This document shows, in pieces, positions 31,104 to 35,393 of a stretch of DNA of 64,000 nucleotides (positions within the stretch are counted from its first letter, which is position 1; each line of letters begins with the position of its first letter). The stretch comes from Candidatus Binatia bacterium (GTDB lineage Bacteria > Desulfobacterota > Binatia > UBA9968 > JAJDTQ01): NCBI GenBank assembly GCA_963666515.2, contig OY762897.2:1856001-1920000 (forward strand). The letters are read 5' to 3'. A program made the translations under genes and the position numbers. The notes under the pieces are model-generated. The model saw nothing but the letters and a program-made list of their open reading frames with translations, was not told where the DNA came from and ran no database searches.

Positions 31104-32780
31104 CTATTTCCCCTTCAGCCGCCGGCCGAGCGCGATCAGGAACATGACGCTCTTGCCGGCGGCATGGGGCGAGAAGAAAGCGGTCACGTCGTCGTCGAAG
31201 AAGGTCAGACCCGAGGCGCCGAAGCCCTGGGCGTAGGCCGCCAGGTAGAGGCGGCCGGCGGTGATGCTGGCCTCCATCTGCGCCAGGCGGTAGCCGCGGT
31301 TGCCGTAGCGCTGCAGCACTTCGTCGAGGTCGGTGAGAAAGTAGACGTTGACGCTGGCGTCGGCAGGGATCTCCTGCCTCAGGCCGAGGAAGCCGGCCTC
31401 CCGGCGGAACTCGCCTTCCTTCAGAAGTTGAAGGCACGCCCGTTCACGGTCCAGCACGTAGGCGCCGGAGGGCAGGTCGTCCACGTTGTTGACAATGAGG
31501 TAGAGGTGGTTGAACGGTTGCGAGCCGCCGGGGTCCACGTCCGTGGCGACGCCTCGGGTAGCGTAGTGGAGGGCGTTGGACAACTGGGCGAAGGTGATGG
31601 AGTCGTGCGAGAAATGCCGGGTCGAGCCGCGGCGCACGATCACCTGCTCGATGCCGGCGGCGGGGAGTGACCCCGCGGGCTCGACATCCAGGGGCAGCTC
31701 GCGTGCGACGGTTGCGCCGGTATCCACTTCGGATGTCCGAGCAGTTTTCGCCGCCTCTGTCCGCGCAGACTCCGCATCGCCCGTCCCGGCAGCGCCGGTC
31801 TCGCCCGTTTCCCCTTCCCGCCAGCGCCGGACCTCGGCGCCGCCTGGACCCCGGATCAAGTCCGGGGTGACGTTTGAGTCTTCCCCTTCCCGCCAACTCC
31901 GGGCCTCCTCGCCGCTGCCGAGACTCGACGCCGCGTGCATCTCCCGGATGGACGGATAGTCCACTTCTCGGCGGGACAACGGCCGCGTGGCGTAGTCCAG
32001 GGGCGGCAAGGTCTCGCCGGACGGCGCCGTGGGCGAACCCTGACGGCCCACGGGCACGAGGCACAAGGCCGCCTCCTTGGCGGGGTCGAGACCCAGCAGG
32101 TGGTTCACCGATGCGTCGGCGAACCCCATGACCACGCGGGCGGGGATGTCTCGCGCGGTGGCCGCCGCCAGGAAATTCGCGAGCATGGTGCCGCCGTCCC
32201 AGAAACAGTGGCGGTAGGCGCGGTCGCGGTACTTCCAGCTATTGCGCCAGAACGTGGAGGCGAAGACCAGGATGAGCGGGGCATGGGCCACCGCCGGCTC
32301 CCCGCCGGCGGCTTCCACCAGCGCCTCCCGGTGGTCGCCCGGCCGCAAGGGGGTCAGGGCGAAGCGTTCGGGCGCGAAATGGTAGACGCCGGCATCGAGA
32401 TCGGCCAGCGGCCCGGCGACGACGTAGACGTCGATATGGTAGAGCGCGCCCGTGCACGCGGCCGCCCGGAAGAGCATCTCGCCGCCGAAATAGCGCCGGC
32501 GGCGGGTGACGCCGGCGCACAGAAACAGCAGCTCGCCAAGCTCCTGGCGGGTGACCCCACACTCGCCCTGCGGTGCGGACCGAGACAGGGCCGCCAGCGC
32601 GGAGACGCGGGACGACCCCAGGTGCTGCTCCAGCGGCAGCGCCTCCAGGTCCTCGTAGACCTTAAAGGGGTGAGGCTGGTTGTCCCAGTCGAGGTAGTGG
32701 GGGCCGCTGCGGATGCTGACGAGAGAGTGCTTGGTCCGCTCGTGATAGTCCCGGGCGGATGCGATGTCCTGATTACCCAT
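31104..32780 (-). CDS. SagB/ThcOx family double-domain nitroreductase with a low-complexity/REP insertion
   Basis: YHERTKHS, LDWDNQP, RAAACTGALYH, WKYRDRAYR, RRGSTR, GLTFFDD. Confidence 0.88.
   Translation of the reverse strand: MGNQDIASARDYHERTKHSLVSIRSGPHYLDWDNQPHPFKVYEDLEALPLEQHLGSSRVSALAALSRSAPQGECGVTRQELGELLFLCAGVTRRRRYFGGEMLFRAAACTGALYHIDVYVVAGPLADLDAGVYHFAPERFALTPLRPGDHREALVEAAGGEPAVAHAPLILVFASTFWRNSWKYRDRAYRHCFWDGGTMLANFLAAATARDIPARVVMGFADASVNHLLGLDPAKEAALCLVPVGRQGSPTAPSGETLPPLDYATRPLSRREVDYPSIREMHAASSLGSGEEARSWREGEDSNVTPDLIRGPGGAEVRRWREGETGETGAAGTGDAESARTEAAKTARTSEVDTGATVARELPLDVEPAGSLPAAGIEQVIVRRGSTRHFSHDSITFAQLSNALHYATRGVATDVDPGGSQPFNHLYLIVNNVDDLPSGAYVLDRERACLQLLKEGEFRREAGFLGLRQEIPADASVNVYFLTDLDEVLQRYGNRGYRLAQMEASITAGRLYLAAYAQGFGASGLTFFDDDVTAFFSPHAAGKSVMFLIALGRRLKGK
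31843..31872 (+). repeat. REP-like family A variant inside a CDS
   Basis: CCTGGACCCCGGATCAAGTCCGGGGTGACG between 15-bp direct repeats TTCCCCTTCCCGCCA (31809, 31881). Confidence 0.8.
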
Positions 32781-32816
32781 GGCGCCTCCGGCCTACGTGA
32801 AGGCCCTGGCGGGCCG

Positions 32817-33770
32817 CTACACGGCGATGTTCCAGAACTGTTTGACCAGAGTCCCCAGGACGTAGGTGACGGCCACGGCGCCGAACACCAGGAGAAGGTT
32901 CTGAAGCACCCGCGGGCGAACCTCCATGCCCGACATGACCGACAGCAGCGCGGTCACCAGCACCACCATGCCCCCGCCCACCACGATCGACCACATCGGG
33001 CTGACCGCGCCCAGGAGCACCGGGAAGATGGGGAACATGGCGCCCACGAAGTAGGAGATGCCCACGGCGATGGCGGCCGACAGCGGTCGCGTCTCCTCCG
33101 GCGGCTTCAGCTCGGGGTCGAAGAAGTTGCGCTTGGCGTTCTCGATGCGCTGGACCTCACGCTGGGAACGGGACGAGGCCAGCACCCCTGCGGCCATGGA
33201 GATGGAGCCTGCCACCGCCACCGTGAGGCTCGCCACCACCACGTAGGCGGGATGGCCGAACGAGGCGTAGAAGCCGCTGACGCTGCCCAGCACCTCCACC
33301 AAACCGTCGTTCAGCCCCAGGAAGATGTCGCGCACGCGTTCCGGGTTCATGCGCCTGCCGGTGAGGCCGGCGACGATCTCGTCCTCGTGGCCGAACTCGT
33401 CGCGCAGGATGCCGCGGATGCGCGGACCGTAGGGCGTGTCCTTGTAGCGGTCCCACAGCGCCCAGTACTTCTTGACGCCGTAGATCTCGATGGCTTCCAG
33501 GATGAGGAAGGTCATGGCCACGCCGAAGAAGCGCCGCAAGAGCAGGAGCAGGTTCAGCCGCAGGCGCTGCACCCGGTCCAGCGAGGTGTCCTTGAGGCCG
33601 GCGAAGTCGGCCCAGAAGGCGACGTGGCCCCGCTCCACGGTGACGAGACGGCTCAGGACGTTGTGGACCTCGCCGGTCTCCATCTCGCGGAGCCGCACGT
33701 ACAGGGCCATGTCGAAGGCCTCGTCGCGCGCCACCTTGCGCACCAGCCGGTCGTTTTTCGGTTCCATCAT
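32817..33770 (-). CDS. Ferritin/rubrerythrin-like domain fused to VIT1/CCC1 transporter (MbfA-like architecture)
   Basis: E..ERGH..E..EFGH diiron pattern, then FLGLNDGLVE and AGSISMAAG; ATGA overlap with globin gene. Confidence 0.85.
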   Translation of the reverse strand: MMEPKNDRLVRKVARDEAFDMALYVRLREMETGEVHNVLSRLVTVERGHVAFWADFAGLKDTSLDRVQRLRLNLLLLLRRFFGVAMTFLILEAIEIYGVKKYWALWDRYKDTPYGPRIRGILRDEFGHEDEIVAGLTGRRMNPERVRDIFLGLNDGLVEVLGSVSGFYASFGHPAYVVVASLTVAVAGSISMAAGVLASSRSQREVQRIENAKRNFFDPELKPPEETRPLSAAIAVGISYFVGAMFPIFPVLLGAVSPMWSIVVGGGMVVLVTALLSVMSGMEVRPRVLQNLLLVFGAVAVTYVLGTLVKQFWNIAV

Positions 33771-34195
33771 GAAGTATGGGCGAGCGCCTTGCGCTTGGCC
33801 TCGGCGGGGTCGCAGTCGGAGCCGCGGTCGCGAGTGATCAGGGAGCGGAGGCTCTCGGTGTGCTCCAGCCATGCCGCGCGCACGGCCTCGGGCACCTGGA
33901 ACTCGTCGAGGGTCTCGCGCAGGATCTGCAGGCGGCGGGCGAACTGCCCGCCCATGATGGGATGGGGGGCGTGGGCCTGTTCGAGGGGACGGCCCTGGTA
34001 TTCGATGTCCGCGCCGAGCGCGCGCGCGGTGAACTGGAACTCCAGTTCCTTGATGCGGCCGCGGTCGGCGTTGCGGAAGAAGAACCCGATCATGAGGTCG
34101 TCGAATATCCGGTCGACGAAGACATCGATGACCTCACGCAGGCGCTCGGCGCCTATCTCTTCGTAAAGGGAAGGCGTTGCGTCCTCTCCGGGCAC
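33767..34195 (-). CDS. Group I truncated hemoglobin
   Basis: SLYEEIG, DDLMIGFFF, YQGRPLEQAH (proximal His). Confidence 0.85.
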   Translation of the reverse strand: MPGEDATPSLYEEIGAERLREVIDVFVDRIFDDLMIGFFFRNADRGRIKELEFQFTARALGADIEYQGRPLEQAHAPHPIMGGQFARRLQILRETLDEFQVPEAVRAAWLEHTESLRSLITRDRGSDCDPAEAKRKALAHTS

Positions 34196-34513: not shown

Positions 34514-34571
34514 GGCTTCACTCCTTCACTGGTTTCGCACCGGCGCCCGCGTCGCGGGCTCGGCCAATGCG

Positions 34572-34880
34572 TCAGACCTCGACCTCGATGTCCGAACCTT
34601 CCACGCGGACGTTGAACGTGTCGACGCCCGTGTCCGCCGGGGGTCCGGAGGCCTCGCCCGTGGTGATGTCGAACATCGCGCCGTGCCACGGGCACTGGAC
34701 GTCGTTGCCCATCACCTCTCCCTCGGACAGAGGCGCGCCGCGATGCGTGCAGAAGTCGTCGATGGCGTAGAAGTTCCCATCCAGGTTGAACAGCGCGACC
34801 CTGCGGCCGTTGACCTCCACCAGCTTGGGCTTGCCGGGTTCCACCTCATCCGTGGTCGCGACCTTGACGTACTCTGCCAT
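34572..34880 (-). CDS. Rieske [2Fe-2S] ferredoxin
   Basis: CTH...CPWHG. Confidence 0.93.
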   Translation of the reverse strand: MAEYVKVATTDEVEPGKPKLVEVNGRRVALFNLDGNFYAIDDFCTHRGAPLSEGEVMGNDVQCPWHGAMFDITTGEASGPPADTGVDTFNVRVEGSDIEVEV

Positions 34881-34892
34881 GCAATCTCTCCC

Positions 34893-35393
34893 TTATCCGC
34901 GGGCCGCTGCCGCCGAGCCCTTGACCAGCCAGCGCTCCCGCATCACCTTGTCCTGAATCCGCAGAAGGCCCTCGGTCAATGCCTCGGGGCGCGGCGGACA
35001 ACCCGGGACGTACACGTCCACGGGCACGATCTTGTCGACGCCCTTGCACACCGAGTAGGCCATCTGGAACAGGCCGCCGCAATTGGAGCAGCTCCCCATG
35101 GAGATGACGTACTTGGGATCGGGCATCTGATCGTAGAGCAGCCGCGTTCGCTTGGCCATCTTGTAGGTCAGCGTCCCGGCCACGATCATCAGGTCCGACT
35201 GGCGCGGCGTCGCCCGCGGCACGCAACCGAAACGGTCCAGGTCCGCGCGCGGCCCGCCCGTCTGCATCAGCTCGATGGCGCAACAGGCCAGCCCGAACAA
35301 CATGTACCACTGGGACGACGCCCTGCCCCAGTTCAACAGATCGTCGACCCGGGTGGTGAAGACCGTCTCGGGAAGACTGTTGGTAATCGGCAT
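34893..35393 (-). CDS. nuoB: NADH-quinone oxidoreductase subunit B-like protein (orphan)
   Basis: [48 protein letters not shown]. Confidence 0.93.

Follow-up and report, generated by a model that had tools for sequence, protein, structure and literature searches.

A detached nuoB gene opens a lineage-limited unit of iron and iron-sulfur genes in Binatia

Rieske ferredoxins act as one-electron shuttles, glutaredoxins of the Grx4 type carry [2Fe-2S] clusters, and ferritin/VIT1 fusions buffer or export iron. The closest described systems each contain one part of the locus analyzed here. In Binatia, the complex I subunit NuoB (NF011393) is encoded within nuoA-B-C-D-H-N operons, and in related Binatia operons nuoD is directly followed by nuoH. 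According to the accessible text of the sources, nuo genes are co-localized in 86% of genomes (PMC4453560), so that split arrangements are common, and most clades mix split and single-cluster forms of complex I (bioRxiv 10.1101/2025.03.13.643058). In E. coli, the accessible text of PMC11327457 reports that deletion of grxD lowers cluster loading and activity of complex I, an effect seen on NuoF and not on NuoB. The iron exporter MbfA, which joins an N-terminal ferritin-like domain to a VIT1-like membrane domain, is described in the available part of PMC7762939 as limited to alphaproteobacteria under Irr control. Among truncated hemoglobins, TrHbN-1 (M. tuberculosis HbN) is set apart from TrHbN-2 (S. 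benthica HbN), for which the accessible text of PMC11904497 gives a low-affinity type with hydrophobic residues at B10, E7, E11 and G8.

The locus lies in a 64-kb stretch of Binatia DNA, hereafter the window. In it, nuoB no longer belongs to the ancestral nuoA-B-C-D-H-I-J-K-L-M-N operon but stands, with a promoter of its own, at the head of an iron-gene unit (Table 1). The parts are all of known kinds, and what sets the locus apart is their arrangement behind a detached nuoB; the split complex I arrangements cited above likewise distribute nuo genes over several loci but, in the accessible text of those two sources, include no lone nuoB joined to Fe-S carrier genes. The interpretation we favor, at a probability of roughly one half, is that of a lineage-limited Binatia unit in which the detached nuoB encodes an ordinary complex I subunit working in trans and made together with Fe-S delivery helpers.

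Table 1. Genes and control elements of the nuoB locus, in window coordinates
Feature	Position	Strand	Description
sigma70-like promoter of nuoB	35464-35492	minus	TTGAAA, 17 nt, TATCTT
nuoB ribosome-binding site	35398-35404	minus	AGGAGGT, read from sequence; GGAGGT invariant 6/6
nuoB	34893-35393	minus	166 aa; complex I N2-cluster subunit, PRK14818 type, outside nuo operon
Rieske gene	34572-34880	minus	102 aa; soluble Rieske-type [2Fe-2S] ferredoxin, C44, H46, C63, H66
grxD	34196-34513	minus	105 aa; monothiol CGFS glutaredoxin (Grx4/GrxD)
globin gene	33767-34195	minus	142 aa, GTG start; 2/2 truncated hemoglobin, group I fold, atypical pocket
ferritin/VIT1 gene	32817-33770	minus	317 aa; MbfA-like fusion
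nitroreductase gene	31104-32780	minus	558 aa; tandem-domain SagB/ThcOx-like FMN oxidoreductase, variable linker

Re-reading of the open reading frames (ORFs) reproduced exactly the layout given in the original prediction, with six co-oriented genes separated by 12, 58, 0, -4 and 36 nt, and predicted Fe-S, heme, diiron or FMN ligand motifs were found in all six products, in agreement with its claim that each would bind such a cofactor. Third-position GC content (GC3) of the six genes is 0.86-0.95. The sigma70-like promoter is the sole such site in positions 30800-36000, with 9/12 matches; shuffled sequences give 0.4, which makes it weak evidence taken alone. In an upstream alignment of the window and its five nearest relatives (L001-L005), both the -35 and -10 hexamers are kept (6/6) although the flanks diverge. 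This conservation, the gene order kept in the five relatives and the Fe-S biogenesis genes that adjoin other detached nuoB genes uphold the proposal of a shared transcription unit with an iron and Fe-S theme. No conserved stress operator is seen in the alignment of six sequences, in which only the -35 and -10 elements and the ribosome-binding site are kept. Gene spacing is not conserved: the gap between nuoB and the Rieske gene reaches about 120 nt in relatives, and L002 carries inserts of about 250 nt on either side of grxD. No intrinsic terminator was found in positions 30800-36000 and no RNA family in an Rfam scan of positions 26000-41000. ISC/SUF assembly genes (iscS/iscU, sufBCD/sufS) were found neither among 60 window ORFs scanned with Pfam nor, by tblastn, in L001-L005.

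The window NuoB scores 302.2 bits against NF011393 (PRK14818; equivalog cut-off 255) and 223.5 bits against TIGR01957 (cut-off 142.7). As first noted, it keeps all four Cys of the N2 cluster (C37, C38, C102 and C132, including the tandem Cys-Cys), and these are invariant in 32/32 aligned sequences. Assignment as a [NiFe]-hydrogenase small subunit was rejected, with 16-23 bits against FrhG, VhuG and hydA models whose cut-offs are 180-450 and no large subunit among the 60 ORFs. The statement that the window holds no other nuo or hydrogenase subunit gene also stands, on the basis of a Pfam scan of the 60 hand-picked ORFs and of tblastn searches of the whole 64-kb window with ten Nuo subunits of the Binatia type (A, C, D, H-N), NuoE/F/G being covered by the Pfam scan only. 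No nuo neighbors accompany nuoB in L001-L005 either, and such neighbors are not a requirement for NuoB function. The gene thus differs from its counterparts in Binatia nuo operons in its surroundings, having its own promoter and Fe-S and iron genes behind it.

The protein itself shares 94% identity with the NuoB from the nuo operon of L007 and 91-95% with the operon copies of L006-L010, L028 and L029. Conservative changes at only about five core positions (R15, C57, R82, M111 and I146) distinguish it from each of the six operon copies used for comparison. Its dN/dS against L001-L005 is 0-0.011, whereas the five genes behind it have values of 0.04-0.37 and those flanking the unit 0.04-0.30; among related genomes, operon-embedded NuoBs are 97.5-99.4% conserved and other Nuo subunits 73-91%. 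Judged by its sequence, the window NuoB is a complex I subunit without modification, and its constraint is far above that of its neighbor genes.

These properties bear on the suggestion that NuoB acts in a stand-alone soluble chain, independent of complex I, in which the Rieske protein relays its electrons to the globin and the diiron domain. Adjacency and common orientation of the genes are consistent with such a chain, as is the presence of a Rieske ferredoxin gene within 5 kb of a detached nuoB in two other loci (L033 and L050), but the L033 gene is a member of a SUF operon, and its presence there needs no NuoB to account for it. A neofunctionalized NuoB is not supported, given its near identity to operon copies and a constraint equal to theirs, with no sign of relaxed interfaces in the analysis against L001-L005, and the locus encodes no reductase or flavin input for NuoB except the uncharacterized nitroreductase. 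We therefore regard the chain as highly improbable. A predicted complex of NuoB with the Rieske protein scored 0.00 in two runs, a value with no bearing on binding since controls were not folded. That the Rieske ferredoxin might instead feed electrons into a complex lacking NuoEFG was an idea prompted by the direct nuoD-nuoH junction of related operons; it was set aside because the accessible text of PMC8262859 describes the full set of complex I subunits in every Binatota genome studied.

Under the favored interpretation, NuoB would most likely assemble in trans with Nuo subunits encoded elsewhere and is probably the working copy. The genes behind it would be generic Fe-S and iron housekeeping parts, the likely benefit being that synthesis of apo-NuoB coincides with that of helpers that would deliver Fe-S for cluster N2, and the globin and the flavoenzyme may be added passengers that handle oxidants.

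The six-gene order was found in 5/80 NuoB loci fetched, all from the nearest relatives (L001-L005), whose NuoB is 99-100% identical. Unrelated flanking genes (MatE, FxsA, BtuF, VTT, MutY, OCD) are syntenic in the same five loci, and the depth of the six-gene order does not exceed their synteny. Of the next ten NuoB relatives (88-95%), 7/10 have the gene within a nuoA-N operon, and 0/10 have the iron-gene neighbors of the window nuoB. The broadly conserved system of the original prediction is hence reduced to a local one: its gene order is kept within L001-L005 and is not conserved beyond one lineage. This narrow distribution, with its equally syntenic flanks, would also fit a chance relocation, in which nuoB landed before an existing Rieske-grxD-globin-iron string and came to share a promoter with it without any functional link. 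The variable intergenic distances are compatible with that explanation, as are an internal deletion that breaks the ferritin/VIT1 gene in L003 and the numbers of relatives of two of the products: the globin has at least 120 at 65% identity or more, versus only about 30 ferritin/VIT1 matches above 55%, so that the two are not widely co-inherited.

What argues against chance is the company that nuoB keeps in other genomes. Four other independent detached-nuoB loci (L015, L033, L034 and L050) adjoin Fe-S biogenesis genes (SUF, iscA, isc/mrp), and Fe-S genes lie within 5 kb in 5/8 independent detached events, as against 1/68 operon-embedded rows; in this post hoc comparison on a small sample, p is 0.009 with lineages collapsed by hand and 0.08 under the strictest scoring. 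The other 3/8 events have no Fe-S neighbor, and detached nuoB genes without any Fe-S neighbors also occur in the related genomes L011, L012, L013 and L027. We judge chance relocation to be unlikely. A broader proposal, tentative and in our estimate unlikely, is that nuoB has moved repeatedly and independently from nuo operons into Fe-S biogenesis operons, because N2 loading would require dedicated, co-expressed carriers. This locus would then be an N2-maturation module coupled to an uncharacterized truncated-hemoglobin subfamily, in which Glu E11/Arg G8 and the C-terminal Cys might enable chemistry of a peroxidase-like or a thiol/sulfur kind, partnered by Grx4 or the Rieske protein. The proposed sites of nuoB relocation are SUF genes of a planctomycete, iscA of a bdellovibrio, isc/mrp and Rieske-grxD genes of Binatia, and the vicinity of isc in an acidobacterium. 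We found no paper on the six-gene cluster or on nuoB within Fe-S operons in a literature search with subscription journals mostly outside its coverage, which does not establish absence from print.

Detached genes could also be spares, one of the options in the original prediction. If the main operon keeps its nuoB, a second copy co-expressed with Fe-S carriers and iron export might replace damaged N2 subunits under stress. Precedents for a second copy exist: one Binatia locus (L015) holds two nuoB types, of which the additional one is flanked by iscU and an rrf2 regulator gene, and L011-L013 carry near-identical detached copies in accessory regions. NuoBs like those of L011 and L013 fall into big protein clusters, of 1171 and 753 members, which suggests that extra copies may be frequent. 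The phylogeny is compatible with a window NuoB either in the detached group or among operon copies: FastTree places it beside that group with weak support, and AU tests of three topologies, which compare operon and detached placements, give p of 0.15-0.85. On the other side, the window NuoB is constrained as strongly as operon copies, and the lack of a conserved upstream operator fits poorly with stress control. The single-chromosome genomes L001-L003 show one nuoB locus each among the matches listed, a weak indication, and no second nuoB of these chromosomes was recognized among the best 120 NuoB clusters, a comparison of little power with one representative per cluster. We consider a spare copy somewhat unlikely.

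The genes behind nuoB resemble known proteins to differing degrees. The Rieske protein (PF00355, E 2.8e-22) is soluble and of about 100 aa, with CxH...CxxH boxes whose four ligands are invariant (8/8), and it scores under the cut-offs of named dioxygenase ferredoxins. The glutaredoxin scores 141 bits against TIGR00365 (cut-off 117.1), with CGFS and WPTIPQ motifs. It shares the CGFS motif and TIGR00365 membership with E. coli GrxD, an Fe-S carrier that affects complex I cluster loading (accessible text of PMC11327457 and PMC8593673), but differs in being predicted to be co-transcribed with a client gene and in having no BolA, A-type carrier, scaffold or desulfurase gene among the 60 window ORFs scanned.

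The N-terminal four-helix domain of the ferritin/VIT1 protein presents candidate diiron ligands (E17, E46xxH49, E92/E95 and E125xxH128); in 36 sequences, E17, E46, H49, E92, E95 and E125 are invariant and H128 nearly so. Structural comparison of residues 1-140 with ferritin-like chains using VIA-align gives Z of 13-14, with about 125 residues superposed at an rmsd of about 2.5 A; for helical bundles this is close to noise, yet many rows match, and the Rubrerythrin HMM matches weakly in 10/36 sequences. The membrane domain is recognized by PF01988 (82 bits) and by VIA-align to VIT1 (6IU4, Z 19.9, residues 143-317). The protein has the domain architecture of MbfA, but the relatives named for it, at about 48%, belong to Nitrospirota and Elusimicrobiota, and its exporter role is predicted. 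The nitroreductase scores 168.6 against TIGR03605 (SagB; cut-off 78.4), and its closest solved structure is 3EO7 (E 1.5e-49, both halves), a SagB/ThcOx-like dehydrogenase with the same tandem nitroreductase-fold halves. An azole-peptide cluster was rejected: unlike SagB/ThcOx clusters, the window has no YcaO cyclodehydratase among the 60 ORFs scanned with Pfam and therefore gives no sign of such a cluster.

The globin matches PF01152, and its model (pLDDT 82.6) is closest to M. tuberculosis HbN (TM 0.76). Pocket positions, set by alignment to structures of B10, E7 and E11 mutants and ungapped from helix E to helix G, are Val B10, Phe CD1, Ile E7, Glu E11, His F8 and Arg G8, with a C-terminal DCDP motif. 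From model and sequence, with its 2/2 fold, His F8 and Phe CD1, the protein is a group I truncated hemoglobin. These features and Phe B9 are shared with TrHbN-1 and TrHbN-2, but the Tyr B10/Gln E7/Gln E11 network of the former and the all-hydrophobic pocket of the latter, as given in the available parts of PMC11904497 and PMC4720485, are replaced by charged Glu E11 and Arg G8 and a C-terminal Cys. Neither Glu E11 nor Arg G8 occurs in the 18 active-site combinations (0/18) in the accessible supplement table of PMC4720485. Among the 120 close matches listed, E52, H75, R88 and C128 are present in 120/120, position E11 being Glu and position G8 Arg in 120/120, and B10 is Val, Ile or Met in 119/120 (one gap); the Glu E11 and Arg G8 pair recurs in 114/121 informative 50%-identity representatives. 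A tblastn search against plasmids gave no match. The protein lacks TyrB10/GlnE11 and is hence not supported as a classical NO-dioxygenase globin, and since its broad subfamily shares Glu E11, Arg G8 and the C-terminal Cys, the proposed link to NO stress weakens. Its pocket residues suggest that it is more likely a peroxide- or thiol-reactive heme protein than an NO dioxygenase.

The locus offers two leads, one of them on how individual Fe-S clusters, and N2 in particular, are delivered to bacterial complex I; should both fail, it would be an ordinary case of known genes rearranged within one lineage. The globin stands for a wide subfamily whose charged distal pair falls outside the common pocket types, and is a cheap target for new heme chemistry. 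Should detached nuoB genes prove to follow Fe-S carriers in several phyla, their neighbors would be candidates for N2-loading factors, open to tests in culturable hosts.

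Re-reading of the sequence returned the six ORFs of the original prediction, with the same coordinates and gaps (12, 58, 0, -4 and 36 nt), and all parts of the unit are members of known families. HMM and Pfam searches place the nuoB product in the NF011393/PRK14818 type (302 bits against a cut-off of 255) and identify the glutaredoxin as a CGFS Grx4 (141 bits, cut-off 117); the other four products are a Rieske ferredoxin, a bacterial globin, a SagB-like nitroreductase and a VIT1 protein. In agreement with the original prediction, no further Nuo or hydrogenase subunit was detected in the window, either in a Pfam scan of 60 hand-picked ORFs or by tblastn of ten Nuo subunits from related operons against its entire length. 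The unit has a shared promoter region and intact cofactor motifs. When the window is aligned with the loci of its five nearest relatives (L001-L005), two sigma70-like hexamers and an RBS are the only stretches conserved ahead of nuoB, and the unit therefore probably begins with this gene; the alignment reveals no conserved operator, and the sigma70-like site is weak taken alone (1 found versus 0.4 expected). We found no description of the gene combination, or of the globin pocket, in the open-access texts searched.

The window NuoB is canonical and under strong constraint. It is 94% identical to the nuo-operon copy of L007, a related locus, and about five conservative core positions set it apart from all six operon copies compared. 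Its dN/dS against L001-L005 is 0-0.011 at dS of 0.35-1.4, versus 0.04-0.37 for the other five genes of the unit and 0.04-0.30 for the flanks, and operon NuoBs of related genomes are 97.5-99.4% identical to that of L007, with other Nuo subunits at 73-91%. We infer that this is the pattern expected of a subunit constrained by its interfaces within complex I; a stand-alone chain, in which NuoB would feed electrons through the Rieske protein to the globin and diiron domain, appears very improbable. A second possibility, that the window gene is a spare repair copy, we consider less likely than the reading favoured below. Each of three single-chromosome relatives contributes one nuoB locus to the best 80 of 593 stretches. 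All Binatota genomes of one study are reported to carry all complex I subunits (PMC8262859), and split complex I gene arrangements are common (PMC4453560; bioRxiv 10.1101/2025.03.13.643058); PMC4758237 and PMC8235220 yielded no further information on lone nuoB genes. In the Binatia-type nuo operons of L006-L029, nuoD runs straight into nuoH wherever the DNA suffices; this junction leaves no room for nuoEFG, so that the group already has its complex I genes divided. NuoBs resembling the detached type of L011/L013 fall into clusters with 1171 and 753 members, and an operon-like type into one of 2187. In a FastTree tree the window NuoB groups weakly with the detached copies. When three placements were compared by AU tests on a set of 17 sequences, each remained acceptable (protein, p 0.15-0.85; first and second codon positions, p 0.39-0.57).

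A scan of genome contigs with NuoB confirmed 593 stretches, of which the best 80 form the sample used here. The broad conservation of the neighbourhood to which the original prediction had looked was not found: within this sample the six-gene order is confined to one lineage, occurring in only 5 of the 80 loci, all nearest relatives (L001-L005, two of them titled Candidatus Binatia) with NuoB 99-100% identical. Unrelated flanking genes are syntenic in these loci too (FxsA in 5/5; MatE, VTT and pyridine-nucleotide oxidoreductase each in 4/5; BtuF, MutY and OCD each in 3/5), and the gaps within the unit vary among window and relatives. The restricted order would fit a chance relocation of nuoB, a reading we consider unlikely. 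Among the next ten relatives (NuoB 88-95%; same best 80 of 593), seven have nuoB in nuoA-B-C-D-H-I-J-K-L-M-N operons, some of which end at contig ends (that of L028 comprises nuoA-nuoB only), and three (L011, L012, L013) have it detached in surroundings that differ from the window's. Rieske, grxD, globin, VIT1 and nitroreductase genes are found at none of these ten loci, some of which are short. We take L006-L013 to belong to order UBA9968. Three globin and three ferritin/VIT1 matches at ~70% identity share the same sources and contig sizes (12644, 8078, 13646), which hints indirectly that the two genes are linked in a sister lineage. Next to the unit, the pyridine-nucleotide disulphide oxidoreductase gene converges on the nitroreductase gene across an 11-nt gap and is absent from L004; the Gp49-like/HTH pair of the nearby insert looks like a toxin-antitoxin module.

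Features of the window and of other loci (L handles, loci with NuoB matches)
Sequence	Coordinates	Feature
Window	27973-31092	DUF2064, VTT-domain and pyridine-nucleotide disulphide oxidoreductase genes, adjoining mutY
Window	31104-35393 (minus strand)	Six-gene unit
Window	35464-35492	Sigma70-like site upstream of nuoB
Window	36849-40291	Lower-GC insert (0.59-0.60) between BtuF-like gene and fxsA, which are adjacent in L001 and L004; Gp49-like/HTH pair, near-duplicate HTH gene, HNH endonuclease
L002	10833-11686	Similar repeated elements (~250 nt each) on both sides of grxD
L003	11722-11938	Ferritin/VIT1 gene internally deleted; short N- and C-terminal parts left, most of middle gone
L011	8508-20007	Fatty-acid desaturase gene, then detached nuoB; block with desaturase, nuoB and ftsH duplicated, ~6.8 kb apart
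L013	8377-10877	Fatty-acid desaturase gene, then detached nuoB
L015 (Binatia)	3926-11052	mrp-mrp-ferredoxin-reductase-iscU, second nuoB, rrf2, directly upstream of nuoA-B-C-D
L033 (Planctomycetales MAG)	9177-15598	sufR-like, nuoB, sufC, sufB, sufD, Rieske, sufT-like
L034 (Bdellovibrionota MAG)	6527-7577	A-type carrier gene (IscA/ErpA family) immediately before lone nuoB
L050 (Acidobacteriota MAG)	1781-13247	nuoB-nuoI-nuoB (two different NuoBs), Rieske at 1.3 kb, iscS-iscU-iscA at 6-7 kb

The window globin is atypical. Its model (pLDDT 82.6) superposes on group I truncated haemoglobins with a TM of 0.76, and its pocket, read from an ungapped alignment with the M. tuberculosis and Tetrahymena proteins and not from the model, would comprise Val27 (B10), Phe39 (CD1), Ile48 (E7), Glu52 (E11) and His75 (F8), with Arg88 at F8+13, or G8 in the numbering of PMC4319818 and PMC11904497. 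All 120 close globin matches listed keep Glu52, His75, His78, Arg88, His112 and the Asp-Cys-Asp-Pro motif at 127-130, and none of them has Tyr at B10. Of 150 distant representatives, the 129 no longer than 420 aa were retained; Glu E11 and Arg G8 occur together in 114 of the 121 covering both positions, the C-terminal Cys in 80 of the 83 covering it, and Tyr B10 in 43 of those kept. By sequence, the subfamily that carries Glu E11, Arg G8 and the Cys is broad, and Myxococcota is where the nearest Atlas clusters occur most often. The putative carboxylate-arginine distal pair would resemble that of DyP-type peroxidases. Single cases of fusion to rhodanese, glyoxalase II and DUF480 domains occur in the subfamily, the first two hinting weakly at sulfur or glutathione chemistry. 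According to PMC11904497, Tyr B10/Gln E7/Gln E11 go with high O2 affinity and enzymatic activity, and a hydrophobic pocket goes with low affinity; as aligned, the window globin would fit neither type. Neither Glu E11 nor Arg G8 figures among the 18 active-site combinations covered from supplement file 2 of PMC4720485.

The 317-aa ferritin/VIT1 protein has the architecture of MbfA, an iron exporter of alphaproteobacteria (PMC7762939), with ferritin-like matches over residues 1-140, VIT1 matches over 143-317 and conserved diiron-type Glu/His residues. Beyond the lineage, the relatives that carry a name come from Nitrospirota and Elusimicrobiota (~48%). The nitroreductase resembles PDB 3EO7, and the 60 hand-picked window ORFs include no YcaO partner for it.

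Detached nuoB genes adjoining Fe-S genes constitute a lead, not a result. The 80 loci (best 80 of 593) contain 83 nuoB rows, which a script classified as 69 operon, 13 detached and 1 edge; by hand, the second NuoB of L015, a divergent protein of PRK14817 type with 41% identity to the window NuoB, was moved from operon to detached, and the edge row, L013, was counted with L011. Eight independent detached events result, five with Fe-S genes within 5 kb: the window lineage (Rieske, grxD), L033, L034, L015 and L050, whose 20 kb contain no further nuo gene. L011/L013, L012 and L027 have none within 5 kb. Only one of 68 operon rows (L015) has an Fe-S gene within 10 kb, with at least 3 kb of DNA upstream of nuoA in 49 of the 62 nuoA loci. 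The test of this association is post hoc (Fisher p 0.009 for ~15 lineages counted by hand, 0.02 without the window lineage, 0.08 under strict scoring); its queries were drawn from positive loci, and nuo genes fill one side of operon copies.

E. coli GrxD affects complex I cluster loading, as shown on NuoF (PMC11327457; background in PMC8593673). The reading we favour, at a probability of about 0.5 for its parts jointly, is that NuoB would assemble into complex I in trans, that its co-expression with Grx4 and the ferredoxin would help to load the N2 cluster, and that the downstream genes would buffer iron and oxidants.
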